A stretch of DNA of 64,000 bases, from positions 107,694,001 to 107,758,000 of the forward strand of contig CM126215.1 of NCBI GenBank assembly GCA_052327205.1. Reading direction: 5' to 3'. The stretch's first letter is position 1. Every line of letters begins with the position of its first letter. The DNA is from Somniosus microcephalus. Lineage: Eukaryota. The notes under the pieces are model-generated. The model was not told the origin of the DNA and ran no database searches. It saw only the letters and a list, made by a program, of their open reading frames with translations. Shown here one piece after another: positions 2,865 to 56,090 of this stretch. The translations under genes and the position numbers were made by a program.

Positions 2865-5800
2865 GATGTCCTAGGGGGAGTGTTTGCTAGTGCTCTGGGG
2901 GAGGGTTTAAATTAAAATGGCAGGTGGTTGGGAACCTGAGCAGGGAGACACAGGAAAGTGAAACAAGGATAAAAGCAAAAGATAGGAAGGAGAAAAACAA
3001 AAGTGGCAGTCAGAGAAATCAGCGGTTTAAATCAAACATGGCTACAGTAAATAATAATTCTAAAAGGTCTAAGAGCGTTAAAAAAACAAGCCTGAAGGCT
3101 TTGTGTCTTAATGCGAGGAGCATTCGTAATAATGTGGATGAATTAGCTGCGCAAATAGAGGTAAACGAATATGATTTGATTGGGATTACAGAAACATGGC
3201 TCCAGGGTGGCAAGGCTGGGAACTCAACAGCCGGGGGTATTCAATATTCAGGAAAGATAGACAAAAAGAAAAAGGAGGTGGAGTAGCATTGCTAGTTAAA
3301 GAGGGGTTTAACACAATTGTAAGGAAGGATATTAGCTCTGATGATGTGGAATCTGTATGGGTAGAACTGAGAAATACCAAGGGGCAGAAAACGTTAGTGG
3401 GAGTGGTATATAGACCTCCAAACAGTAATGCGGAGGTTGGGGATGGCATTAAAAGGGAAATTAGAGAAGCGTGCAATAAGGGCACAGCAGTTATCATGGG
3501 TGACTTTAATCTACATAAAGATTGGGCTAACCAAATTAGTAACAATACTGTGGAGGAGGAATTCCTGGAGTGTATACAGGATGGTTTCCTGGACCAATAT
3601 GTCGAGGAACCAACTAGAGATCAGCCCATCTTAGACTGGGTATTGTGTAATGAGAAAGGATTAATTAGCAATCTTGTTGTGCGAGGCCCCTTGGGTCGGA
3701 GCAATCATAATATGATAGAATTCTTCATTCAGATGGAGAGTGAAGTAGTTGACTCAGAGACTAGGGTCCTGAATTTAAATAAAGGAAACTATGATGGTAT
3801 GAGGCGTGAGTTGAGTAGGATTGATTGGCAAATGTCACTCAAAGGGTTGACGGTGGATAGGCAATGGCAAACATTCAAAGACCGCATGGATGAACTACAG
3901 AGTTTGTTCATCCCAGTTTGGCATATAAATAAAATGAAAAAGGTGACTCAACTGTGGCTAACAAGGGAAATTAGGGATAGCATAAGATCCAAGGAGAGGA
4001 CATACAAATTGGCCAGAAAAAGCAGTAAACCTGAGCATTGGGAGCAGTTTAGGATTCAACAAAGGAGGACAAAGGGATTAATTAAGAAGGGGAAAATAGA
4101 GTATGAGAGAAAGATTTCAGGGAACATAAAAACTGACTGTAAAAGCTTTTATAGATATGTGAAGAGAAAAAGATTGGTGAAGTCAAGTGTAGGTCACTTG
4201 CAGTCAGAATCAGGGTAATTTATAATGGGGAACAAAGAAATGGTAGACCAATTAAATACATATTTTGGTTCTATCTTCACAAAGGATGACACAAATAACC
4301 TCCCAGAGATGTCGGGGAACATAGGGTCTGATGAAAGGGAGGAACTGAAAGAAATCAGTATTTGTAGGGAAATGGTGTTAGGGAAATTGACGGGATTGAA
4401 GGCCGATAAATCCCCAGGGCCTGATAATCTACATTCTAGGGTACTTAAGGAAATGGCCCTAGAAATAGTAGATGCATTGCTGATCATCTTCCAACATTCG
4501 ATAGAATCTGGAACAGTACTCATGGATTGGAGAGTAGCTAATGTTACCTCACTATTCAAAAAAGATGGTAGAGAGAAAACGGGGAATTACAGAATGGTAA
4601 GCCTGACATCGGTAGTGGGGGAAATGCTAGAGTCCATTATAAAAGATGTAATAGCAGAGCACTTGGAAAACAGTGACAGGATCGGACAAAGTCAACATGG
4701 ATTTACAAAAGGTAAATCGTGTTTGACTAATCTACTGGAATTTTTTGAGGATGTAACTGGTAAAATAGATAAGGGAGAATCAGTGGATGTGGTGTATTTG
4801 GACTTTCAGAAGGCTTTCGATAAGGTCCCGCATAAGAGATTAGCATGTAAAGTTAAGGCACATGGGATTGGGGGCAAGGTATTGATTTGGATAGAGAACT
4901 GGTTGGCAGACAGAAAGCAAAGAGTTGGAATAAACGGGTCTTTTTCCGAGTGGCAGGCAGTGACTAGTGGGGTACCGCAGGGATCAGTCCTTGGACCCCA
5001 GCTATTCACAATATATATTAATGATCTAGACGAGGGAACTAGATGTAATGGCCTAGAAATTCACTATGGCCCCGCCAGCTGGCTAGCGCCCAAAAGTTAG
5101 CGCTGGGCGCGGAGCCAGTTGCGACCATCAGAAATTCAGTTTTTGCGCCCCAAGTCGGAACCGGGCGCTATTCCAGGGTGTGCCCGCCCCCGCTTGGGGC
5201 GCTGAAGCTGAATTTCAGCGCTGTAGGCGCCGCTGCGCCACCCGCTGCGGAGCGGCAGGCTGCGGTACTGCAGGCCTCCTCCTTCTCTTAAGGGGGAGGT
5301 GCCTGCAATGGGGAGATCGCCGCTGGATAGTGCCGGCAAATGAGCCCGGCACCACGGAGAAGTGCCGGGTTCACGGAAAGCAGCCAGCAATGCCGCGGGG
5401 GGGGTGGTGGAGGAGGCCGGGGAAGGAGGTGCGGGCAGGCGGCCGCCGAAAAAGCGGCCGGCCGCACCTCCACCTTAAAGCGCCCCACTAAGGCTACAGT
5501 ACGGCCCCGTTTTCTGGTCGCTGTTTGCGGCCGCTGCGGAAGAGGCGGCCGCAAATCAATATGGGGGTCGGGCCGGTAGCGGGGCACTGCGCACACCGAT
5601 GACGTCATCGGTGCCGGCGCAGCGCTAACGGCTACCGTCGCTATTACCACTGCGCTGAATATCAGCGCAAACTCCTCTATTGGCGCAGAAGCCCTCTTTG
5701 GGCAGTAACTGGCTGCAAAGCTGGCAGCGCCTTACTGAATTTCTAGGCCAATATCTCCAAGTTTGCAGATGACACAAAGCTGGGTGTGCATGTGTGCTGT

Positions 5801-7684: not shown

Positions 7685-10600
7685 TTGAAAGTTCTCTATC
7701 TGAATGCACGTAGCATTCGTAACAAAATAGACGAGTTAATGGCACAAATAACTACATATGGGTATGATCTTGTGGCCATTACAGAAACATGGCTGCAGGG
7801 TGACAATGCCTGGGAATTAAACATACCAGGTTATTTAACGATCAGGAAGGACAGGCAGGAAGGAAGGGGAGGTGGCGTGGCTATGTTAATAAAGGAAGGA
7901 ATCACTGTAATACAGAGAAATGATACTGGGTCAAAAGATCAGGATAATGAAACAGTTTGGGTGGAGGTAAGGAATAATAAGGGGAAAAAAACACTAGTGG
8001 GCGTAGTCTATAGGCCTCAGAACAGTGGCAACTCTGTTGGACGGAGTATCAATCAGGAAATAGTTGAGGCTTGTAATAAGGGAGCATCTATAATTATGGG
8101 GGATTTTAACTATCATATTAATTGGACAAATCAAATTGGGCAGGGCTGCCTTGAGGATGAGTTCATTGAGTGTATTAGGGGTGGGTTTCTTGAGCAGTAT
8201 GTAACTGAACCGACCAGGGGGCAAGCAACCTTAGATCTGGTCTTGTGTAACGAGACAGGATTAATTAAAAATGTCCTAGTAAAGGATCCCCTTGGAATGA
8301 GTGACCATAACATGGTTGAATTCCATATTCAATTAGAGGGCGAGAAGGTTGGATCGCAAACAAGCGTGCTAAGCTTGAATAAAGGAGACTATGAAGGTAT
8401 GAGAGCGGAATTGAGTAGAGTGGATTGGGAAAATAGATTAAAGGGTAAGACGATACATGATCAGTGGTGTACATTTAAGGAGTTATTTTACAACTTCCAA
8501 AAAATATATATTCCACTGAGAAGAAAAGGGTGTAAAAGAAAAGACAGCCATCCGTGGCTAAGTAAAGAAATTAAGGATAGTATTCGACTAAAAACAGGGG
8601 CATACAAGGTAGCCAAATCTAGTGGGAGGATAGAGGATTGGGAAAACTTTAAAAGACAGCAAAAAATAACAAAAAGATTGATTAAGAAAGGGAAAATAGA
8701 TTATGAAAGTAAATTAGCAAAAAATATAAAAACAGATAGTAAGAGTTTTTATAGTTATATAAAAAGAAAAAGGGTGGCTAAAGTAAATGTTGGTCCCTTA
8801 GAGGATGAGACCAGGAAATGAATGGTGGGAAATATGGAGATGGCAAAAACACTGAATGAATATTTTGTATCAGTCTTTACAGTAGAAGACACTAAGAATA
8901 TCCCAACACTGGACAAACAGGGGGCTATAGGGGGGGAGGAGCTAAACACGATCAAAATCACTAAGGAAGTGGTACTCGGTAAAATAATGGGACTCAAGGC
9001 GGATAAATCACCTGGACCTGATGGCTTACATCCTAGGGTCTTGAGGGAAGTGGTGGTAGGGATTGTGGATGCATTGGTAATAATTTTCCAAAACTCCCTG
9101 GACTCAGCAAAGGTCCCGGCAGACTGGAAAACTGCTAATGTAACGCCCTTATTTAAAAAGGGCAGTAGACAGAAGGCTGGAAACTATAGACCGGTTCGCC
9201 TAACATCTGTGGTAGGTAAAATATTGGAGTCCATTATTAAGGAGACAGTAACAGGACATTTGGATAATCATAATTTAATAGGACAAAGTCAGCATGGTTT
9301 TATGAAGGGGAAGTCATGTTTGACAAATTTGCTGGAGTTCTTTGAGGAAGTAACATATAGGGTGGATAAAGGGGAACCAGTGGACGTAGTGTATTTAGAC
9401 TTCCAAAAGGCATTTGACAAGGTGCCACACAAAAGATTATTGCTTAAGATAAAAAATCACGGGATTGGGGGCAATATTCTGGCATGGATAGAGGATTGGC
9501 TATCTAACAGAAGGCAGAGAGTTGGGATAAATGGTTCATTCTCGGGCTGGCAATCAGTAACTAGTGGTGTTCCACAGGGGTCAGTGCTGGGTCCCCAACT
9601 CTTTACAATCTATATTAACGATTTGGAGGAGGGGACCGAGTGTAACATATCAAAGTTTGCAGATGATACTGTGGCGTTGCCACATTGGGGAAACACTGTG
9701 TGTATGTAGATAAACCTGTATAATCCCCTTTTAACTGCTGTATTCCCCTCCCCCCGCAAGACAGTTGCAAGCTGAGAGGAATAAGGCACGTTCAGACTTG
9801 CCTGCAGCTGATAGAAGGAAAACCAATCAGGTTCCAGCAGGTGACCAATCCGTGAGTCATCACAGGTTCGCGGGCTTCACGAATTCAGTACTGTATTGTG
9901 AGAGTTGGAGTAAAGACCTATTTCTTGTAGCTCGCTGGGTTGCCTATTTCTTTACGCGGGAGACCGTAGCCCCCCACAATACTAAGATGGGAAGGAAAGT
10001 AGTGAGTGAGGAGGACATAAAAAACCTGCAAGGGGACATAGACAGGCTAAGTAAGTGGGCAGAGATTTGGCAGATGGAATGCAATATTGGAAAGTGTGAG
10101 GTTATGCACTTTGGCAGGAAAAATCATAGAGCAAGTTATTATCTTAATGGTAAGAAACTGGAAAGTACTGAAGTACAAAGGGATCTGGGGGTCCTGGTGC
10201 ACGAAACTCAAAAGGTTAGTATGCAGGTGCAGCAAGTGATTAAGAAGGCCAATGGAATGTTGGCTTTCATTGCTAGGGCGATAGAATATAAAAATAGGGA
10301 GGTATTGCTTCAAGTTGTACAAGGTATTGGTGAGACCGCACCTGGAATACTGCATACAGTTTTGGTGTCCATACTTAAGAAAAGACATACTTGCTCTCGA
10401 GTCAGTACAAAGAAGGTTCACTCGGTTAATCCCGGGGATGAGGGGATGGACATATGAGGAGAGGTTGAGTAGATTGGGACTCTACTCATTGGAGTTCAGA
10501 AGAATGAGAGGCGATCTTATTGAAACATATAAGATTGTGAAGGGGTTGGATCGGGTGGATGCGGGGAGGATGTTCCCGATGATGGGTGAAACTAGAACTA

Positions 10601-11042
10601 GGGGGCATAGTCTTAGAATAAGGGGCTGCTCTTTCAAAACTGAGATGAGGAGGAACTACTTCACTCAGAGGGTGGTAGGTCCATGGAATATGCTGCCCCA
10701 AAAAGCTGTCGGAGCTACATCATTACATAAATTTAAAACAGAAATAGACAGTTTCCTAGAAGTAAAGGGAATAAAGGGTTACGGGGAGCGGGCAGGAATT
10801 TGGACATGAGTCTAGGTTCAGATCGGTCATGGCCCTGTGGGTAGCGGAGCGGGCCCAGGGGCCGTGTAGCCTGATCCTGCTCCTATTTCGTGTGTCTAAT
10901 TCTGTTAGATTCAGGAGATGGTTCTGTGATAGTAGATTGGCGGTTAGGATCAGATCAGCCATGATCTTATTGAATGGCGGAGCAGGCTCGAAGGGCTGAT
11001 TGGCCTACTCCTGCTCCTATTTCTTATGTTCTTATGTTCTTA
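7685..11042 (+). mobile_element. CR1 LINE subfamily B, ORF2 plus 3'UTR; decayed and interrupted by a solo LTR
   Basis: Endonuclease LKVLYLNARSIRN...SDHN; RT ORFs 8822..9709 and 10315..10809; (TTCTTATG)n tail; nearly identical to the minus copy 42325-44408. Confidence 0.95.
9670..9978. mobile_element. Solo LTR (309 bp), probably Gypsy-type
   Basis: TGTGG...CCACA termini; 4-bp TSD ATAC (9666-9669, 9979-9982); removal restores GATGATACTAAGATG; AGTAAA polyA-like signal near 9910. Confidence 0.85.
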
Positions 11043-11498
11043 TTATAAACTTATTTTGTGCAGTGGAACTGCTGATAGCTCTTAGCAACTTAATTGCATA
11101 AGCAATAAGCAGATGGCTGGTTGTGGTCTTGGCTGGAAATAGCGGGGGTCATTTATACAGTTCATAGTTGGATTCATTCAGTCTATAAGTATTATATTAC
11201 ATCACTAGCTTGAGCTATGCTGTACTTTGTTCCTGAAGCAGTAACATAATGAAAGTTGCCTCATGTGAATATTGCTCAAAGGTATTAGTATTTGATCCAA
11301 AATGGATCCTCATTCTGATTATTCAATTGGGTTAAGGTGCCCATTTGAGTTACTTTTTAGATCATTTAAATTATTTTGGAACCGATTACCACAAAATTAC
11401 TTTGACACCTCCAGGCAGAAATCTAGCCGCAAACTTTGTTATTAGCAGCAGAATTTACAACTCTGGAGGTAATGTACAAACCATATGTAAAGTAACAT

Positions 11499-11850: not shown

Positions 11851-13555
11851 TACTATGGGGAAGTTTGCACAGCAGCAAAATCCACGTTAAAACAAAAATG
11901 CATATCGTCTCCAATACACAGTAGACGGGGATTCCAGGTATGCTTCACGGGGATGTATGGGAAAAGTGTGAGCTCTTCAGCTGATCAGCTACAAAAGGGC
12001 CTCCTCCAATGGCAAATTGTTTTAGATTTATGTTGCTGTCGGATGAGGTGCTGCCATTGGAAACGTAGGCTCTTATGGTGGCATGTGCCACGTTCCTGAC
12101 ATTGCCAGCTTTCCGTCAGATTCAGACCTGCTGTTAAACAAGCTATCAGAAATATTAAATAATTCTGTTTAAATTGTTCAACGAGTTGTGACTTGGGAAT
12201 TGCAAGAAATTAGTGTGTATAAAGGGGTGTATAAAGGGGTTGTTGTTGACAGAGCACGCAAAGTGTCCCTGGATATCACGTTTGATCAGTTGGTCACACC
12301 GCAGGCAAAGGTTGGACAGGCAGAAAGGGAACGGGTGACCAACAGACAGAGTATTAGGCACAGGCAGGTAGTGCAGGGGTCCCCGGTGGACATCCCCCTC
12401 TCAAACAGATACACCACTTTGAGTACTGTTGGGGGGGATGGCTTATCAGAGGAAGGCAGCAGCAGCCAACTTCCTGGCACCAGGGGTGGCTCTGCTGCAC
12501 AGGACAGGAGGAAAAAGAGGGGTAGAGCTATAGTAATAGGGGATTCAATTGTAAGGGGAATAGATAGGCGTTTCTGCGGCCGCAAACGAGACTCCAGGAT
12601 GGTGTGTTGCCTCCCTGGTGCAAGGGTCAAGTTTGTCTCTGAGCAGCTGCAGCACATCTTGGAAGGGGAGGGTGAACAGCCAGTTGTTGTGGTGCATAGA
12701 GGTACCAACGATATAGGTAAAAAACAGGATGAGGTCGTAAAAGCTGAATATAGGGAGTTAGGAGGTAAATTAAAAATAGGACCTCAAAGGTAGTAATCTC
12801 AGGATTGCTACCAGTGCCACGTGCGAGTCAGGAAAGAAATAGAAGGATATTTCAGATGAAAACGTGTCGAGAGGAATGGTGCGAGGGGGAGTGATTCAAG
12901 TCCCTGGGACATTGGAACCGGTTCTGGGGGAGGTGGGACCAGTTCAAACCGGATGGTTTGCACCTGGGCAGGGCCGGGACCAATGTCCTAGGGGGAGTGT
13001 TTGCTAGTGCTCTGGGGGAGGGTTTAAACTAAAATGGCAGGGGGTTGGGAACCTGAGCAGGGGGACAGAGGAAAGGGAAACAAGGATAAAAGCAAAAGAT
13101 AGGAAGGAGAAAAACAAAAGTGGCAGTCAGAGAAATCAACGGTTTAAATCAAACATGGCCACAGTAAATAATAATTCTAAAAGGTCTAAGAGCGTTAAAA
13201 AAACAAGCCTGAGGGCTTTGGCCTAGAAATTCAGTATCGCCACATTTGGGGTGCTACTGCCGAGTGGTCGCTAAATTTAGCGCCCGGCGCAACTTCGCGC
13301 CACCTTCGTCGAAATTGAGTTGCATCACACCAAGAGGTTGCTGCTGCGCTAAAGCAGGTGGTGCATGACTATCATAAGGTGCTAAGCCAGCGAGCCGAGG
13401 CGCAGCGCAGGTGTGGCGAGTTATCGTTTGCAAGCAGACACGCTGGCGCCGGTCAGCTCTTAAAGGGGGAAGGTCGAATTGGTTTGCAGCCACGCCCTGC
13501 ACACTGCAGTCCTGAATCTAGGCCTGGACAGACCTGCTTCGACAACGCCACGCCC

Positions 13556-16526: not shown

Positions 16527-17645
16527 CTAGAACCGACTTGCAATAAGCCGCTGACGGACGGCCCTTGCACTTTGTGCCTCCCTCCTGTCTTGGTGCTCCT
16601 CCTCCTCCTTCTCCTCCTCCTCCTATGGTGGTCCTCCAATGTCTGCTGGCAGTGGCTGAGTCCTGAGGATAGCCAGGTTGTGCAGCATGCAGCACACTAC
16701 AACAAAATGGGAGACTCGCTCAGGCGAGTACTGTTGGGCTCCCCCGGAATGGTCCAGACAGCGGAACCGTTGCTTCAGCACACCGATTGTGTGCTCAATG
16801 ATGTTCCTGGTCACTTGATGGCTGTCACTGTATCACTCTTCAGCAGGGGTGGTGGGCGCATGGAGCGGGGTCATCAGCCAGGTGCACAAAGGATAGCCCT
16901 TGTCCCCGAGAAGCCAGCCTCCTGGGTGAGCCGGGGCTTCGAAAATGTCTGCCACAGAAGTCTGGTGCAGGATGAAGGCATTGTGGCTGCTGCCTGGAAA
17001 GCGGGCATTGACAACTAGTATGAGCTGCCTGTGGTCACACACCAACTGTACGTTCCGCGAATGGTAGCCCTTCCGGTTGCGGTAATCCTCGGCATTCTCT
17101 AGAGGCGCCCGCAAAGCCACATGCATGCAGTCAATGGCGCCCTGGACCATGGGGAAGCCCACTATTCTTGCAAATCCCATTGCACGCTCTTGCTGCTTGT
17201 CCAGGGTCATGGGGAAGGAAATGTAGTGACGTCTCCTTCTGAAGAGAGCATTCGTGACCTGGCGGATGCAGCAATGCACCGCGAACTGGGATATATTGGC
17301 AATGGCCCCAGTAGCAGATTGGAAGGAGCCGGTGGCATAGAAGTTAACAGCCACTGTCACCTTCACTGCCACCGACAGAGACGTCCTGCTCCTCAGCTGA
17401 GGCTGCAGATCTCTATGAAGCAGGTGGCAGATCTCAGTGACCATCTCCCTTCTGAATCGAAGCCTCCGAATGCACTGCTCCTCAGATATGTTGAGGTAGG
17501 AGAAGTGCTGGCGGTATACCCTGGGAGGGTAAGGCCTCCTGTGCCGACGCCTGTTGGCCCTTCTCCATCTGGCCATGATTGGCACTCTCTCTCTGCGTCT
17601 CTGAGCCATTTCAATGCAATGCAGAAACCCAACGTTTCCACCCAT
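16527..17645 (-). pseudogene. Harbinger DDE transposase (HARBI1-like, DDE_Tnp_4) with two in-frame nonsense codons
   Basis: [56 protein letters not shown] and acidic tail; premature TGA at 16835-16833 and TAG at 16625-16623; natural stop ...LIASRF* at 16527. Confidence 0.9.
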
Positions 17646-20045
17646 TGCACTCAAGGCTATGGCACTGAAAAATAAATTGAACTGCAAATCTCTGGCCTGA
17701 AGCCAGAAGTACCTGTGCGAGCGCTGAGTCAAAGCAGAAACCTCTCTCCCTTTGTCTCTCTTCAAATCACTCTCTCTCACACAGAAGGAGTGGAACAAAA
17801 TGGCTACCACCAAGAATACAGTAAGAGTCCCCTTTAAATAGCGCCCCCCCAGCCCCACAGCGACTGTGAACCATTCCACTCAACCAGTCGCTGGGCGTGC
17901 CAGGCGCAAAGAAGGGGGGCGCCACTGAAGCTCCGGTTCGGGGCGCACCAAGGGCGTTACACCATGAAATGACGTCAGGATCTGTGCACACAGCTTTGCG
18001 GGCGCTGTGGTTTTGCGCCGCCGCAAATTCTTGACTCAAGTTCGCAAGAGGCGCAGATCGTGCCGCGCCCGGGTGCTCGCCGCTTCACGCCCCACTTCTC
18101 ACCCTCTTAAGGCGCTAGCAGCTGGCGCTAACAACTGAATTTTTAGACCTTTGTGTCTTAATGCGAGGAGCATTTGTAATAGGTGGATGAATTAGCTGCG
18201 CAAATAGAGGTAAACGAATATGATTTGATTGGGATTACGGAAACATGGCTCCAGGGTGGCCAAAGCTGGGAACTCAAAATCCAGGGGTATTCAATATTCA
18301 GGAAAGATAGGCAAAAAGGAAAGGGAGGTGGGGTAGCATTGCTGGTTAAAGAAGGGGTTATCACAATTGTAAGGAAGGATATTAGCTCTGATGATGTGGA
18401 ATCTGTATGGGTAGAACTGAGACATACCAAGGGGCAGAAAACGTTAGTGGGAGTGGTATATAGACCTCCAAACAGTAATGCGGAGGTTGGGGATGGCATT
18501 AAAAGGGAAATTAGAGAAGCGTGCAATAAGGGCACAGCAGTCATCATGGGTGACTTTAATCTACATATAGATTGGGCTAACCAAATTAGTAACAATACTG
18601 TGGAGGAGGAATTCCTGGAGTGTTTACGGGATGGATTCCTGGACCAATATGTCGAGGAGCCAACCAGAGATCAGGGCATCTTAGACTGGGTATTATGTAA
18701 TGAGAAAGGATTAATTAGCAATCTTGTTGTACGAAGCCCCTTGGGTCGGAGCGATCATAATATGATCGAATTCTTCATTAAGACGGAGAATGAAGTAGTT
18801 GACTCAGAGACTAGGGTCCTGAATTTAAATAAAGGAAACTACGATGGTCTGAGGTGCGAGTTGGGTAGGATTGATTGGGGAATGTCACTCAAAGGGTTAA
18901 CGGTGAATAGGCAATGGCAAATATTCAAAGACCGCATGGATGAACTACAAAATTTGTTCATCCCAGTTTGGCATAAAAATAAAACAAAAAAGGTGACTCA
19001 ACCGTGGCTAATGAGGGAAATTAGGGATAGCATAAGATCCAAGGAGAGGACATATAAATTGGCCAGAAAAAGCAGTAAACCAGAGGATTGGGAGCAGTTT
19101 AGGATTCAACAAAGGAGGGCAAAGGGATTAATTAAGAAAGGGAAAATAGAATATGAGAGTAAGCTTTCAGGGAACATAAAAACTGACTTATAGATATGTG
19201 AAGAGAAAAAGATTGGTGAAGTCAAGCGTAGGTCCCTTGCAGTCAGAATCAGGGTAATTTATAATGGCAGACCAATTAAATACATATTTTGGTTCTGTCT
19301 TCACAAAGGAGGACACAAATAACCTCCCAGAGATGTCGGGGAACATAGGGTCTAATGAAAGGGAGGAATTGAAAGAAATCAGTATTTGTAGGGAAATGGT
19401 GTTAGGGAAATTGATGGGATTGAAGGCCGATAAATCCCCAGGGCCTGATAATCTACATCCCAGGGTACTTAAGGAAGTGGCCCTAGAGATAGTAGATGCA
19501 TTGCTGAACATCTTACAACATTCGATGGAATCTGGAACAGTACCCATGGATGGGAGGGTAGCTAATGTTACCCCACTATTCAAAAAAGGTGGTAGAGAGA
19601 AAACGGGGAATTACAGACCGGTAAGCCTGACATCGGTAGTGGGGAAAATGCTAGAGTCCATTATAAAAGATGTAATAGCAGAGCACTTGGAAAACAGTGA
19701 CAGGATCGGACAAAGTCAACATGGATTTACAAAAGGTAAATCGTGCTTGACTAATCTACTGGAATTTTTTGAGGATGTAACTGGTAAAATAGATAAGGGA
19801 GAACCAGTGGATGTGGTGTATTTGGACTTTCAGGAGGCTTTCGATAAGGTCCCACATAAGAGATTAGCGTGCAAAGTTAAGGCACATGGGATTGGCGGCA
19901 AGGTATTGACTTGGATAGAGAACTGGTTGGCAGATAGAAAGCAAAGAGTTGGAATAAACGGATCTTTTTCCGAGTGGCAGGCAGTGACTAGTGGGGTACC
20001 ACAGGGATCGGTGCTTGGACCCCAGCTATTCACAATATATATTAA

Positions 20046-42324: not shown

Positions 42325-44408
42325 ACATAAGAACATAAGAACATAAGAAATAGGAGCAGGAGTAGGCCAATCGGCCCCTCGAGCCTGCTCTGCCATTCAA
42401 TAAGATCATGGCTGATCTGATCCTAACTGCCAATCCCCTATCACAGAACCATCTCCTGCATCTAACAGAATTAGACACACGAAATAGGAGCAGGATCAGG
42501 CTACACGGCCCCTGGGCCCGCTCCGCTACCCACAGGGCCATGACCGATCCGAACCTAGACGCATGTCCAAATTCCTGCCCGCTCCCCGTAACCCTTAATT
42601 CCCTTTACTTCTAGGAAACTGTCTATTTCTGTTTTAAATTTATGTAATGATGTAGCTTCTACAGTTTTTTGGGGCAGCATATTCCATGGACCTACCACCC
42701 TCTGAGTGAAGTAGTTCCTCCTCATCTCAGTTTTGAAAGAGCAGCCCCTTATTCTAAGACTATGCCCCCTAGTTCTAGTTTCATCCATCATCGGTAACAT
42801 CTTCCCCACATCCACCCGATCCAACCCCTTCACAATCTTATATGTTTCAATAAGATCGCCTCTCATTCTTCTGAACTCCAATGAGTAGAGTCCCAATCTA
42901 CTCAACCTCTCCTCATATGTCCATCCCCTCATCCCCGGGATTAACCGAGTGAACCTTCTTTGTACTGACTCGAGAGCAAGTATGTCCTTTCTTAAGTATG
43001 GACACCAAAACTGTACGCAGTATTCCAGGTGCGGTCTCACCAATACCTTGTACAACTGAAGCAATACCTCCCTATTTTTATATTCTATCCCCCTAGCAAT
43101 GAAAGCCAACATTCCATTGGCCTTCTTAATCACTTGCTGCACCTGCATACTAACCTTTTGAGTTTCGTGCACCAGGACCCCCAGATCCCTTTGTACTTCA
43201 GTACTTTCCAGTTTCTTGCCATTAAGATAATAACTTGCTCTACGATTTTTCCTGCCAAAGTGCATAACCTCACACTTTCCAGTATTGTATTCCATCTGCC
43301 AAATCTCTGCCCACTTACTTAGCCTGTCTATGTCCCCTTGAAGGTTTTTTATGTCCTCCTCACTCACTACTTTCCCCCCCATCTTAGTATCATCTGCAAA
43401 CTTTGATATGTTACACTCGGTCCCCTCCTCCAAATCGTTAATATAGATTGTAAAGAGTTGGGGACCCAGCACTGACCCCTGTGGAACACCACTAGTTACT
43501 GATTGCCAGTCTGAGAATGAACCATTTATCCCAACTCTCTGCCTTCTGTTAGATAGCCAATCCTCTATCCATGCCAGAATATTACCCCCAATCCCGTGAT
43601 TTTTTATCTTAAGCAATAATCTTTTGTGTGGCACCTTGTCAAATGCCTTTTGGAAGTCTAAATACACTACGTCCACTGGTTCCCCTTTATCCACCCTATA
43701 TGTTACTTCCTCAAAGAACTCCAGCAAATTTGTCAAACATGACTTCCCCTTCATAAAACCATGCTGACTTTGTCCTATTAAATTATGATTATCCAAATGT
43801 CCTGTTACTGTCTCCTTAATAATGGACTCCAATATTTTACCTACCACAGATGTTAGGCTAACCAGTCTATAGTTTCCAGCCTTCTGTCTACTGCCCTTTT
43901 TAAATAAGGGTGTTACATTAGCAGTTTTCCAGTCTGCCGGGACCATTGCCGAGTCCAGGGAGTTTTGGAAAATTATTACCAATGCATCCACAATCCCTAC
44001 CGCCACTTCCCTCAAGACCCTAGGATGTAAGCCATCAGGTCCAGGCGATTTATCCGCCTTGAGTCCCATTATTTTACCGAGTACCACTTCCTTCGTGATT
44101 TTGATCGTGTTTAGCTCCTCCCCCCCCTTTAGCCCCCTGTTTGTCCAGTGTTGGGATATTCTTAGTGTCTTCTACTGTAAAGACTGATGTAAAATATTCA
44201 TTCAGTGTTTTTGCCATCTCCATATTTCCCACCATTAATTTCCCGGTCTCATCCTCTAAGGGACCAACATTTACTTTAGCCACCCTTTTCCTTTTTATAT
44301 AACTATAAAAACTCTTACTATCTGTTTTTATATTTTTTGCTAATTTACTTTCATAATCTATCTTCCCTTTCTTAATCAATCTTTTTGTTATTTTTTGCTG
44401 TCTTTTAA
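42325..44408 (-). mobile_element. 5'-truncated CR1 LINE subfamily B
   Basis: Near-identical to 8650-11042; TTCTTATG tail at 42325. Confidence 0.95.
42555..44087 (-). pseudogene. CR1 reverse transcriptase domain, uninterrupted 510-aa segment of a truncated ORF2
   Basis: [42 protein letters not shown]; no endonuclease or promoter upstream. Confidence 0.9.
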
Positions 44409-45930: not shown

Positions 45931-46420
45931 TTTCTTTCTTTTTACAGATTACTGAACTTCCACCAGAAACACTGATTTGAATCTCATCCTTCGACAAATT
46001 GCAGGGTTAGGCGGTATAATTGCATGTTGATTTTGCTTGGATTGAATTGCTTGATGAGTGATTAAATGAATATTAACATGAGATTTCCATACTGGTTATT
46101 TTCAGATTTGTTTTATTGATCTGACCCATAAATGTTCTTTGGCTAGTCTTATGTTTATCCGGATTAGGTTGTCATTTTCCCATATGGTTTAAAGTAGGAA
46201 ACGTGTCTTCTAGTTACTGCTATAAATAACAGTCACCTTTAGATATTTTGGGAGCGATTTTAACCCTACTGGCTCAGCAGAAACCTGGCGGGTGGGCAGT
46301 TAAAATCTCCCTGGCTCTGACCAGTCCGAAAGCCGCCATGATCACAACATCTGCAATTTTAACCTGCTCTCCTGAGCAGGCAGCAAGGACGCGCGCCCAG
46401 AGCCAACAGGGTCCTTCTTT

Positions 46421-46708
46421 ACAGCGGCTGGACCTGGGAGGCGAGCAGCGAGGCCCGACCACAGCGGCTGGACCTGGGAGGCGAGCAGCGAGGTGGAGCA
46501 TAAAAGGAGCAGCGAGGCCCGACCACAGCGGCTGGACCTGGGAGGCAAGCAGCGAGGCCCGACCACAGCGGCTGGACCTGGGAGGCGAGCAGCGAGGCGG
46601 AGCATAAAAGGAGCAGTGAGCAGCGAGGCCCGACCACAGCGGCTGGACCTGGGAGGCGAGCAGCGAGGCCCGGCCACAGCGGCTGGACCTGGGAGGCGAG
46701 CAGCGAGG
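46421..46708 (+). repeat. CR1 5'UTR tandem array: six ~40-bp monomers arranged as three dimers
   Basis: ACAGCGGCTGGACCTGGGAGGC(G/A)AGCAGCGAGG at 46421, 46461, 46525, 46565, 46636, 46676; dimers separated by GGAGCATAAAAGGAGCAG spacers. Confidence 0.95.
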
Positions 46709-46939
46709 CTTACCAATTCAGCAGCGGGGGAGAGAGGTAAAAAGTAATCAAAGTGTGACGTCACCAGGAAGCAGGTAAGTGATTGATTGGTGAGTATTTC
46801 TTTTTAAACTTTAACTCCGTGGTTTATAGTTGCTAAGGTCTCTCTGGTGTAACAGGGACTGTTGGTAAACCATTTAACTGTAGTGTAATTAGTGGGATTG
46901 ATTGATTTCATTTAAATTCAATTAATTAAAGGGTAAGTC

Positions 46940-47891
46940 ATGGCAGGACAGCCCGGCCACATGATATGCTCCTCCTGCGATATGTGGGAACTCAGAGACA
47001 CTTCCTGTGTCCCTGAAAACTACATGTGCAGGAAGTGCATCCAGCTGCAGCTACTGACAAACCGCATTGCGGCACTGGAGCTGCGACTGGATGCATACTG
47101 GAGCGTTCACGATGCTCAGGACATCGTGAATAGCACGTTTACAGAGTTGGACACACCGCAGGTACAGGTTGGACAGGAAGAAAGGGAATGGGTGACCAAC
47201 AGGCGGAGTACTAGGCGCAAGCCGGTAGTGCAGGGGTCCCCTGCGGACATCCCCCTCTCAAACAGATACACCACTTTGAGTGCTGTTGGGGGGGGATGGC
47301 TTATCAGAGGAAAGCAGCAGCAGCCAACTTCCTGGCACCAGGGGTGGCTCTGCTGCACAGGACGGGAGGAAAAAGAGGGGTAGAGCTATAGTAATAGGGG
47401 ATTCTATTGTAAGGGGAATAGATAGGCATTTCTGTGGCCACAAACGAGACTCCAGGATGGTGTGTTGCCTCCCTGGTGCAAGGGTCAAGGATGTCTCAGA
47501 GCGGCTGCAGAACATCTTGGAAGGGGAGGGTGAACATCCAGCTGTCGTGGTGCATATAGGCACCAACGATATAGGTAAAAAGCGGGATGAGGTCCTAAAA
47601 GCGGAATATAGGGAGTTAGGAGGTAAATTTAAAAATAGGACCTCAAAGGTAGTAATCTCAGGATTGCTACCAGTGCCACGTGCTAGTCAGAGTAGAAATA
47701 GAAGGATATTTCAGATGAATACGTGGCTAGAGGAATGGTGCAAGGGGGAGGGATTCAAGTTCATGGGACATTGGAACCGGTTCTGGGGGAGGTGGGACCA
47801 GTTCAAACCGGACGGTCTGCACCTGGGCAGGGCTGGAACCGATGTCCTAGGGGGAGTGTTTGCTAGTGCTCTGGGGGAGGGTTTAAACTAA
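46940..47891 (+). pseudogene. CR1 ORF1: N-terminal C4 zinc finger/leucine zipper plus SGNH esterase; frameshift in the G-run near 47290
   Basis: CSSC...CRKC then L-heptads; esterase blocks IVIGDS, LPGA, HIGTND, DGLH; ORFs 46940..47383 and 47280..47891. Confidence 0.9.
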
Positions 47892-50841
47892 AATGGCAGG
47901 GGGTTGGGAACCTGAGCAGGGAGACAGAGGAAAGGGAAACAAGGATAAAAGCAAAAGATAGGAAGGAGAAAAACAAAAGTGGCAGTCAGAGAAATCAGCG
48001 GTTTAAATCAAAAGTGGCCACATTAAATAATAATTCTAATAGGTTTAAGAGCGTTAAAAAAACAACCCTGCAGGCTTTCTGTCTTAATGCGAGGAGCATT
48101 CGTAATAAGGTGGATGAATTAGCTGCGCAAATAGAGGTAAACGAATATGATTTGGTTGGGATTACGGAAACGTAGCTCAAGGATGGCCAAGGCTGGGAAC
48201 TCAACATCCAGGGGTATTCAATATTCAGGAAAGATAGGCAAAAAGGAAAGGGAGGTGGGGTAGCATTGCTGGTTAAAGAGGGGATTAACACAATTGAAAG
48301 GAAGGATATTAGCTCTTATGATGTGGAATCTGTATGGGTAGAATTGAGAAATACTAAGGGGAAGAAAACATTAGTGGGAGTGGTATATAGACCTCCAAAC
48401 AGTAAGGCAGAGGTTGGGGGTGGCATTAAAAGGGAAATTAAAGAAGCGTGCAATAAGGGCACAGCAGTCATCATGGGTGACTTTAATCTACATATAGATT
48501 GGGCTAAGCAAATTAGTAACAATACTGTGGAGGAGGAATTCCTGGAGTGTTTACGGGATGGTTTCCTGGACCAATATGTCGAGGAACCAACCAGAGATCA
48601 GGCCATCTTAGACTGGGTATTATGTAACGAGAAAGGATTAATTAGCAATCGTGTTGTACGAGGCCCCTTGGGTCAGAGCGATCATAATATGATCGAATTC
48701 TTCACTAAGATGGAGAATGAAGTAGTTGACTCAGAGACAAGGGTCCTCAATTTAAATAAAGGAAACTACGATGGTCTGAGGAGCAAGTTGGGTAGGATTG
48801 ATTGGGGAATGTCACTCAAAGGGTTGACGGTGGATAGGCAATGGCAAATATTCAAAGGCCGAATGGATGATCTAAAGAATTTGTTCATCCCAGTTTGGCA
48901 TAAAAATAAAACAAAAAAGGTGACTCAACCGTGGCTAACAAGGGAAATTAGGGATAGCATAAGATCCAAGGAGAGGACATATAAATTGGCCAGAAAAAGC
49001 AATACTCCTGAGGATTGGGAGCAGTTTAAGATTCAACAATAGATTATGAGAGTAAGCTTTCAGGGTACATAAAAACTGACTGTAAAAGCTTTTATAGATA
49101 TGTGAAGAGAAAAAGATTGGTGAAGTCAAGCATATGTCCCTTGCAGTCAGAATCAGGGGAATTTATAATGGGGAACAAAGAAATGGCAGACCAACTAAAT
49201 ACATATTTTGGTTCTGTCTTCACAAAGGAGGACACAAATAACCTCCCAGAGATGCTGGGGAATATAAGGTCTGCTGAAAGGGTGGAACTGAAAGAAATCA
49301 GTATTTGTAGGGAAATACTGTTAGGAAAATTGATGGGACTGAAGGCCGATAAATCCCCAGGGCCTGATAATCTACATCCTAGGGTACTTAAGGAAGTGGC
49401 CCTAGAAATAGCAGATACATTGCTGGTCATCTTCCAGAACTCGATAGACTCTGGAACAGTACCCATGGATTGGAGGGTAGCTAATGTTACCCCACTATTC
49501 AAAAAAAGTGGTAAAGAGAAAGCGGGGAATTATAGACCGGTAAGCCTGACATCAGTAGTGGGGAAAATGCTAGAGTCCATTATAAAAGATGTAATAGCAG
49601 AGCACTTGGAAAGCAGTGACAGGATCGGACAAAGTCAACATGGATTTACAAAAGGTAAATCATGCTTGACTACTCTACTGGAATTTTTTGAGGATGTAAC
49701 TGGTAAAATAGATAAGGGAGAACCAGTGGATGTGGTGTATTTGGACTTTCAGAAGGCTTTCGATAAGGTCCCGCATAAGAGATTAGCGTGCAAAATTAAG
49801 GCACATGGGATTGGGGGCAAGGTATTGACTTGGATAGAGAACTGGTTGGCGGACAGAAAGCAAAGAGTTGGAATAAACGGGTCGTTTTCCAAGTGGCAGG
49901 CAGTGACTAGTGGGGTACCGCAAGGATCGGTCCTTGGACCCCAGCTATTCACAATATATATTAATGATCTGGACGAGGGAATTGGATGTAATATCTCCAA
50001 ATTTGCAGACGACACAAAGCTGGGTGGGAGGGTATGCTGTGAGGAGGATGTCGTGAAACTCCAGTACGATTTGGACAGGTTGGGTGATTGGGCAGAAACA
50101 TGGCAAATGCACTATAATGTGGATAAATGTGAGGTTATCCACTTTGGTGGCAAAAACAGGAAGGCAGATTATTTTTTGAATGGCAATAGATTGGGAGAAG
50201 GGGAAGTGCAAAGAGACCTGGGTATTCTTCTGCACCAGTCGCTGAAGGTAAGCATGCAGGTGCAGCAGGCGGTTAAGAAGGCAAATGGTATGTTGGCCTT
50301 CGTAGCAAGAGGGTTCGAGTACAGGAACAAGGATGTCTTGCTGCAGTTATGCAGGGCCTTGGTGAGACCGCACCTTGAGTATTGTGTGCAGTTTTGGTCG
50401 CCTTATCTGAGGAAGGACGTTCTTGCCATGGAAGGAGTGCAGCGAAGATTCACCAGGCTGATACCTGGGATAGCAGGAATGACGTATGAGGAGAGATTGT
50501 ATCGACTGGGCTTATACCCACTGGAGTTTAGAAGATTGAGAGGGGATCTCACCGAAACCTATAAAATTCTGTCAGGCCTGGACAGACTAGATGCAGGAAG
50601 GATGTTTCCGATGGCCGGGGTGTCCAGAACCAGGGGTCATAGTCTAAGGATAAGGGGTAAGCCATTTAGGACAGAAATGAGGAGGAATTTCTTCACCCAG
50701 AGAGTGGTGAACCTGTGGAATTCTCTGCCACAGAGGGCGGTGGAGGTCAGTTCATTAAATATATTCAAGAAGGAGTTGGATATATTTCTTAAGGCTAAAG
50801 GGATCAAGGGATATGGGGAGAAGGCAGGGACAGGGTACTGA
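47882..50841 (+). pseudogene. CR1 ORF2 (APE endonuclease + RT); RT segment 49102..50841 open for 579 aa
   Basis: -1 frame open from 47882 to NARSIRN; W>TAG near 48173; ORF 48266..49042; complete RT motifs. Confidence 0.9.
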
Positions 50842-52656
50842 ATTTGGATGATCAGCCATGATCTCATTGAATGGCGGAGCAGGCTCCAAGGGCCGAATGG
50901 CCTACTCCTGCTCCTATCTTCTATGTTTCTATGTTTCTATATGTATGTTGCGGCCCGATGACATCGTTGAGACCCGACTGTAATTTTAACACAGGCCTGA
51001 GCGGGGAATCCACCTGGAGTTAAAATCGGGGCCAAATCCTTTGTGCATTGTTCAATGATCTGGTAGGTAAGCCTTGCAGAGAAAGCCTGGAGAATGTTAG
51101 CAAAGGAACATTAGCACAGGAGGTTATATCCTGTTCTTTTTTTAACGGAATCTTATTTCACAAGAGCACATGGCCGTGTTTAAGAAGGCTTACAGTAAAT
51201 TGCAAAGGTGACCACGTAGGGGTTTAATTTGTTCTGTATGTGAGATCTAGTGCACAAACTAACTGGACATTAAGTTGGCATTAATTTAGCAGACATTAAC
51301 GTTTACCCACTCAACTAATGTTGCCGCTGGGGTAAATATTTCTGATCCATGTTAATGCAAAGACCTAGGGGTCGATTTTAACTCAGATGCGGGCAACTGT
51401 CGGGTTCCCCGAATTTCGTGATTCCCACACGAATCTAAATGGATGTGTGAGATTGATGCAATTTTAACTCAATTGGCCAATTGATTTCCAACGTGTGGGA
51501 AGCCTTTGCAAATGGGTTTTTCATGACTGCAAATCCCCTCTGATGATGTCATCATTGCTGCTGCATTTAAGGTCCACAGCAAGCCTGGCTTCCTCTGCAG
51601 GCTTCCAAGCTTTCCCCTTATGATGGCACAGGAGCCTGCAGGAACAATGGCCAGTGGGAGGGCAAGAGCTGCGCCTAAATTTGATGAGGCATCACTGCAG
51701 GCATTGTTGGATGGGGCTAGGGTCCACAGGGAGGTCCTCTTCCCTTCTTCAGGGAGGAAGAGGCCTCCCAGTCAGACCCTGTGTAGCTACAGGTGGCTGG
51801 GGAAGTCAATTCCTTGGGGCTCACACGGCGCACCTGGATGCAGTGCAGGAAAAGATTCCATGACCTTCATCGCACTGGAAAAGTAACTATGAAGTTTCCA
51901 TCACCCTCAATCTGATCCCCATTGCCTTTCCTCACCAGCACTCAGCTTTAGCAATCTCTTCCTCCACATCCCACTTGACACTTACATCCATGCACCCTTA
52001 GCCATTCCCTCTCTCTCTATGCTCACATTCACCTAACTATTCGAGCATGCAGCCCTCACACTCCCTCTCACTCTGATGCTTTGAACACAACTGACAACAC
52101 ACAGGGAGGGCCCTTGGTCTTACAACCTCACTCCATCTTTGTCTCCTTCTATGTAGCTATGCTATGCAATCTCTACACTCACTCCTTCGTTCTCACTCAA
52201 CCTCCACTTATCTCCCTCATTGCAGGAGAAGAGAGCTCACAACAGGAGAGAGCGAGCCAGGACAGGAGGCGGGCCACCCTCATTAGCCCAGCTCACCCCC
52301 TGAGAGGAAGCCGTCCTGGAGATTGTCGGGGCTGATACAGATGTGGAAGTTGGGGAAGGACAGACAGGTGCATCCCCGCAAGCTGGTGACAGAATAGTTT
52401 TCCATCTCTCTCATTGACATTGCATGAGTCGCTGATAATGATTCTGAAGCTACATCATATGGACTTATGATCATCTGCAAAATGCAATGTGCATGTAACC
52501 TTGGCATCACAGCTCTGACTTTTTCCTTGACTCCCCCACAGGACCATCGAGAGCCCCCGTCCCCACTGTGCAGGAGGAAGAGCCTGAGATTCCAGACTCC
52601 TCAGAGGAATCTGCAACCTCTGAGGGCGCAGCGTCAGCAGAATTCAGTGCACCCAG

Positions 52657-54861: not shown

Positions 54862-56090
54862 CTAAGCAAATCTGGTCAGGATGACTGCGTTCCTTGCATC
54901 CCGGGCAGCAATGTTCTCGCGTAATGCTGCCGCTGGTTGATGGGCCTCGGCAGGATGCTTGTTTTCGCCCTCCTCCTGCTCATCATCATCATCTGAGGAG
55001 GGTATGTGAGGAGCCACTTGGTCCTCAGGAATCTGCAAGCCACGACGCTGTGCCATGTTGTGGAGTGCACAGCAAACCACGACGATTCTGGAGACCCTGG
55101 CTGCTGAGTACTGTAGGGCTCCACCTGATCTACCCAGGCATCTGAAGCGCATCTTCAGCAAGCCGATGGTTTGCTCGATTATGGATCTGGTGGAAATGTG
55201 GCTGGAGTTGTAGCACTCCTCAGCTTCGTTGGTTGGCCTCCTCAACGGCGTCATTAGCCAAGTCCTCAGGGGATAGCCCTTGTCTCCAAGTAGCCATCCG
55301 TTAAGTTGGTCTGGCGGCCTGAAGAGCAGAGGCACACTAGACTGGCGCAGTATGAAGGAGTCATGACAACTGCCATGGTACTTGGCACAAACATGCAAAA
55401 TCTCCTTCTTGTGGTCACACACCAGCTGAACGTTAAAGGAGTGGAAGCCCTTGCGGTTGACAAAAATACCTGGATTGCGATGGGGTGCCCTAAGGGCCAC
55501 ATGTGTGCAGCCAATGACGCCCTGCACCCTTGGAAAGTCTGCCAGATGAGCTAATCCAACCGCTCGCGCCATCACATTTGCGTGATCCCTGGTGAAATGG
55601 ATTGTGCGCGAGGGCAAAGAGGGCATCGGTTACCTGCGTGATGCAAGTGTGTGCGGCCGACTGGGAGATGCCGCTGATGTCTGCTGATGATTCCTGGAAT
55701 GAGCCTGAGGCAAAAAAGTTGAGTGCGGTGGTGACTTTGATGGCCACTGGTAAGGAGTGTCCACCTGGTCCTCTGGGCAGCAGGTCTTGCTGTATCATTG
55801 CACACATGTCAGTCACTACCTGTCGCGAAAGTCGGAGCCGCCTTCGGCACTGCTGCTCAGTCATGTTGAGGTAGCTGACCCTGTGTCTGTAGACCCTGTT
55901 TGGGGGGGTATCTCCTGCGCCAATGGGCTTCCATGCGCTGGTCCCTTCTGGCCTGTGCTGCCTCAGGTGGGTGAGCAGCAGCCTGTTGCTCCTGCTGCTG
56001 CTGCTGTTGTTCCTGGTTCAGCTGCTGCTGCGCCTGGTGCTCGAGCTCATCTAATGCGCAGAAGGGAAGGAGAAAAATGGCTCCCATGCT
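54862..56090 (-). pseudogene. Harbinger #2 DDE transposase, frameshifted
   Basis: ORFs 55857..56135 (poly-Q N-terminus), 55490..55864 ([17 protein letters not shown]) and 54862..55626 (GVIGCTHV with first catalytic D>[24 protein letters not shown]). Confidence 0.9.

Follow-up and report, generated by a model that had tools for sequence, protein, structure and literature searches.

The textbook account of how open reading frame (ORF) 2 of a long interspersed nuclear element (LINE) is translated comes from mammalian L1. Mammalian L1 and SART1 make bicistronic RNAs and use a spacer or a UAAUG overlap with reinitiation, and L1 ORF2 is regarded as AUG-independent (PMC5009743); for LINEs as a group, ORF2 translation is described as unclear (PMC3708506). 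A -1 frameshift is stated to be required for ORF2 in the Dictyostelium elements TRE5-A and TRE3-A, which are APE-type LINEs of the L1 clade (PMC5911963), and a frameshift with a pseudoknot follows ORF1 in some Penelope-like elements (PMC8557442), so that frameshifting in elements without long terminal repeats (non-LTR elements) is not new. The coronavirus U_UUA_AAC and the retroviral gag-pol sites share a phased X_XXY_YYZ heptamer (listed in PMC5009743) that closes a structural ORF and is followed by a polymerase ORF in the -1 frame. Here we describe a 64,000-nucleotide stretch of the Somniosus microcephalus genome (contig CM126215.1, positions 107,694,001 to 107,758,000; "the window"), which contains a decayed full-length CR1 LINE at about 46400-50945 with an SGNH esterase in ORF1 and an APE endonuclease and reverse transcriptase (RT) in ORF2. 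Its two frames overlap at a slippery heptamer, unlike those of L1 and SART1. Sequence comparisons make it likely that a programmed -1 ribosomal frameshift at this junction produces an ORF1-ORF2 fusion of about 1,290 amino acids (aa); the first-pass annotation of the window had proposed that such a fusion may be made.

The same domain arrangement, an SGNH esterase in ORF1 with APE and RT in ORF2, is described for canonical vertebrate CR1 and for zebrafish ZfL2-1 (PMC3905857, PMC13343379). Both papers treat the ORF1 and ORF2 proteins (ORF1p, ORF2p) as separate, and the word "frameshift" does not occur in their main texts as far as these were available. CR1 is not named in the available part of PMC5009743, and CR1 frameshifting is not stated in the available parts of the literature searched, PMC4120745, PMC3708506, PMC2734521, PMC4255032, PMC5408684 and PMC4316615 included; the founding CR1 papers and the Repbase notes, which may mention an overlap, lay outside the reach of this search. 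Apparently, -1 frameshifting is undescribed for CR1. Like the coronavirus and gag-pol sites, the CR1 junction leads into a -1-frame polymerase ORF that lacks a reliable start. It differs from them in that no conserved 3' hairpin or pseudoknot was found, in that the stop adjoins the heptamer and in that the host is a non-LTR retrotransposon. A stop at or near the shift site is a feature shared with plant luteo- and umbraviruses, and it is important in pea enation mosaic virus (PEMV, PEMV2) (PMC5009743). The frameshift of barley yellow dwarf virus (BYDV) has distal stimulators (PMC5009743), whereas pairing of the CR1 site to the 3' end of the element shows no cognate preference. TRE5-A and TRE3-A belong to another clade and have another type of ORF1, and their likeness to CR1 is drawn from a review statement.

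The element is a CR1-group LINE with an esterase ORF1, assigned by its domains, and its closest ORF1 homologues are from cartilaginous fish. Chondrichthyan L2 elements are described as lacking ORF1, and canonical CR1 carry the esterase (PMC13343379). In this copy ORF1 is broken into two frames (46937-47383 and 47280-47891, split near 47280-47383), and ORF2 is broken by a stop at 48173 and a frame break near 49040. The first-pass annotation had placed a T_TTA_AAC heptamer in phase directly before the ORF1 stop, a -1 frame open from there into the endonuclease, the same junction in two further copies and about 44 open codons ahead of the first ORF2 ATG, and each of these statements holds (Table 1). 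The -1 frame reads FKLKWQGVGNLSR..., FKLKWQG..., up to the endonuclease start LNARS, and the next stop in that frame is the one at 48173. Linker codon 45 is ATG in the copies at 2906 and 13023 and GTG (48014) in the full-length copy; the copy at 13023 stops at 13219, short of the endonuclease. The three copies are 92-97% identical and represent one family, and TTTAAAY followed by a stop has five matches elsewhere in the window that are unrelated to the CR1 junction, so the window by itself proves little.

Conservation was therefore followed through the organism's own genome of 6.4 Gb. The heptamer is kept in 29 of the 30 nearest copies, and the remaining one reads TTTAAAT. In a second family, whose ORF1 shares about 50% identity and whose linker is unrelated, 23 of 30 loci reach ORF1; every one of these has T TTA AAC, and 22 continue with TAA. 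Loci L140-L159 belong to the same family as L031-L060, and ORF1 was reached in 3 of the 46 loci L160-L205. As an anchor that keeps selection independent of the junction we used the upstream esterase motif DGLHLN, which has 28,379 matches genome-wide. Leu-Asn-stop is encoded 54 nucleotides (nt) after the anchor in 19,205 copies, and 18,077 of these (94%; the copies are not independent) have exactly TTTAAAC-TAR. Among 70 anchor loci, comprising the first 30 listed and 40 of the next 70 that were picked for varied anchor codons with their junctions unseen, 56 contain TTTAAAC-TAR in the scanned stretch. Of the 14 misses, most differ by one or two letters, and a deletion, a shift and an unrelated sequence account for one each. 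In the anchor itself, Leu-Asn is written TTA AAC at just three of the 70 loci.

Because the copies are not independent, 191 of them were clustered by linker into 31 groups, and 22 families remained after nine groups without an indel-free ORF1 tail had been dropped. Ahead of Leu stands a codon for any of five residues (G, A, D, V or S), which ends in T in 20/22 families; the Leu codon is TTA in 19/22 compared with 5/65 at three other Leu positions, and the Asn codon is AAC in 20/22. Third positions upstream of the heptamer have a mean identity of 0.56. Restricted to the 12 multi-copy families, the counts are 12/12 for the T before Leu, 11/12 for TTA and 11/12 for AAC. TTTAAAY plus stop alone is not rare; its conservation at this place across families exceeds chance, and the heptamer is conserved beyond amino-acid need, at its silent positions, by statistics that ignore kinship. 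Free synonymous change in the heptamer, which the first-pass annotation had listed as speaking against a frameshift, is absent. The ORF1 stop is TAA in 13 families and TAG in nine. As an observation apart, TGA occurs in none of the 22, although it would preserve the Leu of the -1 frame.

Both anchors are present in 13 groups, seven of which are multi-copy (at least two copies of modal length). In these seven, heptamer and endonuclease lie 141, 156, 171, 177, 180, 204 and 207 nt apart, in each case a multiple of 3. Stops in the -1 frame of this interval, another sign that would have counted against the first-pass reading, number zero in all seven linkers, compared with 2-10 in the other frames; shuffled linkers are stop-free in 0.4-4.3% (P 0.004-0.043 per family). 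The linkers are non-homologous and unalignable between families, yet always in frame and open. The six groups with a single decayed copy comprise two that are open and in frame, one in frame with a stop and three out of frame. Several abundant families have no ORF2 ATG: three of the seven lack any Met ahead of the endonuclease, and in the other four its position varies (codon 17, 20, 44 or 58). Upstream of the heptamer the -1 frame is shut within 1-5 codons in 21/22 families, and this interval is ATG-free. Codon 45 in the window's family is GTG in 41 and ATG in 4 of 47 scored copies, whereas contigs of three other organisms have A at 48014 throughout: a lineage that had lost this ATG kept multiplying. 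The predicted fusion length follows from the intact copy L288, in which ORF1 spans 314 aa and the -1 frame 980 aa. Separately, L291 and L301 are near-identical to L300 in the sequence 3' of the slip site and carry a different type of 3' tail, which suggests modular exchange of ends among CR1 families.

Other species were compared at the protein level. A Leu-Asn (LN) C-terminus is present in 52 of 96 ORF1 homologues, and in 51 of the 57 that terminate close to the catalytic motif; among them are sequences from chondrichthyans (rays, sharks), teleosts (an eel, a mormyrid) and frogs. Further LN ends (ALN, TLN or FLN) came from a profile search, in turtles, a snake, a monitor lizard and three birds, in a ranking that is biased because the profile held LN columns. 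One frame-slipped turtle model reads KSFKLG, which is the -1 reading; its back-translation yields this heptamer with its stop. In one bird gene model ORF1 and ORF2 are joined with the junction skipped, and a search of annotated ORF1-ORF2 fusion proteins gave one match, which was uninformative. In a tally of the 164 distinct proteins with a credible end (out of 241), 126 end in Asn, namely LN 101, GN 15 (14 of them QGN), KN 4 (all SKN, one cluster) and six others. The distant ends QGN and SKN are compatible, judged from protein alone, with G_GGA_AAC and A_AAA_AAC, because X_XXA_AAC encodes Leu, Gly or Lys and because Gln and Ser can supply the G and the A. U_UUA_AAC, G_GGA_AAC and A_AAA_AAC are listed among the most shift-prone heptamers (PMC5009743). 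A residue unable to end in T stands at position -3 in 1/101 LN proteins, compared with 20% at positions -4 to -8.

Among the variants listed for contigs of four sequencing runs, none fell between 47874 and 47914, a comparison on which nothing here is built. Beyond these homologues the junction was not seen. None of 16 distant esterase loci from a metagenome scan has it, nor do three fragments from prokaryote genome contigs, and viral contigs, plasmids and phages gave no match. Four of the 16 metagenome loci run on into an endonuclease-like frame, which is the same frame as ORF1. On one contig (L094, from 1326 onward) the esterase ORF1 ends in TGA CTA, with the endonuclease-like frame continuing in the same frame. 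UGA-CUA is a readthrough-type context, and its presence suggests a second recoding route in esterase LINEs. Three further loci, L093, L095 (1939) and L102 (1933), end ORF1 with GAA TGA CCA TGC ATG; in L093 and L095 the endonuclease follows in the same frame, by readthrough or reinitiation, and L102 is broken before the endonuclease. An L2-like esterase query gave 128 matches of about 40% identity in the organism's own genome. CR1 ORF1-like sequence also occurs under bacterial names, in a Pseudomonas aeruginosa protein (P0008) and a Providencia contig (L109), and is probably animal contamination there.

Regarding a stimulator, the first-pass annotation had pointed to a G-rich tract that could fold as a hairpin or a G-quadruplex. 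The tract itself is borne out: it lies 7-20 nt 3' of the heptamer and is the sole downstream feature shared across families, with G at position 8 after the stop in 22/22 families, at position 11 in 21/22 and at positions 15 and 16 in 20/22. The hairpin does not hold up, as it is weak (-6.5 kcal/mol; z -1.4 in a sister copy) and lacks conservation. A G-quadruplex is predicted by ViennaRNA in 13/22 families, with no control for comparison. We see about an even chance that the stimulator consists of slow termination at the adjacent stop together with the G-rich tract. Two long-range partners for the tract were tried and rejected by swap tests: a C-rich site some 640 nt upstream in ORF1, which had ranked high in many copies, and the 3' tail, for which one family alone looked specific (z -2.4).

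A number of observations weigh against a frameshift. With 70 nt after the stop folded for one real copy in each of the 22 families, without a pseudoknot model, no shared or significant fold emerged (z -1.7 to +1.5); folds spanning the site, computed for 12 families, had no structure in common, and Rfam gave no matches. In the swap tests cognate pairing reached -18.8 against -18.3 for non-cognate pairing with the upstream ORF1 site (p 0.23, 8 elements), and -18.7 against -18.9 with the 3' tail (p 0.61, 14 elements). The conservation statistics have weak points as well. Families share ancestry, and family counts ignore kinship. AAC is preferred equally in the upstream DGLHLN, so the final C of the heptamer is not diagnostic, and the third positions at -9 (T) and -4 (G) are likewise invariant in 12/12 multi-copy families. 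The test at residue -3 is weakened by helix periodicity, with 6-7/101 at the buried positions -6, -7 and -9, and by the LN columns in the profile. As to start codons, four of the seven multi-copy families retain an in-frame ATG, related organisms have ATG at 48014, and near-cognate GTG, CTG or TTG codons are in frame in the linkers of all seven. The linker has no synonymous bias (34 non-synonymous and 5 synonymous shared changes, with about 26% synonymous expected), so that only its frame and openness, and not its sequence, look selected. As a separate observation, the invariant T belongs to a -1-frame stop whose distance from the heptamer is constant (18 nt on its 5' side) and, with the G that ends codon -4, hints at a wider 5' cis-element.

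Several of these points would fit termination at TAA or TAG and restart at an AUG or non-AUG codon of ORF2, with the conserved letters acting as a reinitiation signal. Such a restart has been proposed for mammalian L1, in which ORF2 initiation is regarded as AUG-independent (PMC5009743), and shown for SART1, which uses UAAUG (PMC3708506); Met is kept in 4/7 families, GTG, CTG or TTG is in frame in all, and neither the folds nor the two long-range pairings revealed a classical stimulator. Reinitiation leaves unexplained, however, why the motif is a phase-exact X_XXY_YYZ, why the frame is open from the heptamer itself to Met codons at 17-58, why no start position is fixed, and why distant relatives appear to have switched to other slippery heptamers. 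A stop-start of the SART1 type is not found either: the ATG at 47893, which follows the ORF1 stop in the window's family, is in the wrong (+1) frame, opens 22 codons and is absent from most other families, and 3/7 families are Met-less. We regard reinitiation as unlikely.

The conserved letters could also reflect protein constraint and shared ancestry, if the esterase required a terminal Leu-Asn, the DNA were simply inherited and ORF2 had its own start codon. The terminal residues do lie within a patterned helix, and the families are kin, with tail identities of at least 0.45 (mean 0.64). Against this, the synonymous positions of the heptamer are fixed while other Leu codons vary, 38/164 homologous esterase ORF1s end in something other than Asn, and unalignable linkers are nonetheless always open and in frame; this explanation is largely refuted, and we give it hardly any probability. 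A route at the RNA level, through a spliced or internally started RNA or through insertion of a base by polymerase slippage on TTTAAA, is only slightly less improbable. For transcriptional slippage, three T and three A make short runs, and the motif keeps to codon phase. Splicing should have left retroposed spliced copies, yet within each family the modal linker length is uniform. In its favour, CR1-group elements without ORF1 exist (PMC13343379).

Programmed -1 frameshifting thus remains the reading we favour, and the junction signal is very probably functional. A fraction of ribosomes would slip back one base at U_UUA_AAC before the ORF1 stop and continue into ORF2, presumably with the Leu and Asn tRNAs slipping in tandem from UUA AAC to UUU AAA. 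The expected product is an esterase-endonuclease-reverse transcriptase fusion with the junction peptide ...GL(N/K)LKWQG.... Most ribosomes would terminate and give an excess of ORF1p, as with Gag over Gag-Pol. More tentatively, and with doubt as to the whole, CR1 may have made such a Gag-Pol-like fusion since before the jawed-vertebrate split, with relatives swapping U_UUA_AAC, G_GGA_AAC and A_AAA_AAC and with the shift driven by the adjacent stop and the G-rich tract (as a G-quadruplex or through a bound protein) and not by a hairpin or pseudoknot.

Table 1. Features of the CR1 junction and its copies (positions in the window).
Feature	Position	Strand	Basis or remark
CR1 ORF1 (Cys-rich N-terminus, SGNH esterase)	46940..47891	+	Lipase_GDSL_2 E 4.3e-12; PDB 4c1b ZfL2-1 esterase E 9e-34
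-1-frame stop TAG, 5 codons before heptamer	47864..47866	+	Shuts ORF2 frame upstream; ATG-free interval
Slippery heptamer T_TTA_AAC (X_XXY_YYZ), in ORF1 phase	47882..47888	+	Sequence and family conservation
ORF1 stop TAA adjoining heptamer	47889..47891	+	Phase G_GGT_TTA_AAC_TAA
G-rich tract from 7 nt 3' of heptamer, candidate stimulator	47895..47908	+	Conserved G positions
Open -1-frame linker, Lys/Arg-rich, 68 codons counted from heptamer	47892..48085	+	GTG at 48014
ORF2, APE endonuclease and reverse transcriptase	48086..50841	+	Exo_endo_phos; RVT_1 E 4e-32
3' untranslated region (UTR), arms GGAGCAGG/CCTGCTCC and short-repeat tail	50842..50945	+	Sequence
Identical heptamer, second copy (12270-13219), 3'-interrupted	13023..13029	+	Sequence
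TTTAAAT variant, third copy, 5'-truncated (from 2865)	2906..2912	+	Sequence

The arms of the 3' UTR presumably form a stem-loop that is recognised by ORF2. At the other end, tandem repeat units lie at 46421-46709, where this CR1 copy has its 5' UTR region. The window also holds a second young CR1 family in two 5'-truncated copies (7686-11043 and 42327-44408) that are 97-98% identical to each other and about 67% identical to the first family; full-length relatives of this family carry the same heptamer junction. Fragments of a DDE_Tnp_4 (PIF/Harbinger-type) transposase lie on the minus strand at 16833-17879 and 54862-55629.

CR1 is described as the dominant retrotransposon in most vertebrates (PMC13343379). 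If the frameshift is real, CR1 ORF2p has been annotated with a wrong N-terminus, and it would be tethered to a membrane-binding esterase in a Gag-Pol-like manner. The ratio of ORF2p to ORF1p would be set by a 7-nt signal, and constructs for CR1 retrotransposition could be designed accordingly. Natural G-quadruplex stimulators of frameshifting were anticipated but unknown as of 2016 (PMC5009743); should the reading of the G-rich tract be correct, CR1 would provide an example, encoded in a cellular genome, of a natural frameshift stimulator that is a G-quadruplex or depends on a protein.

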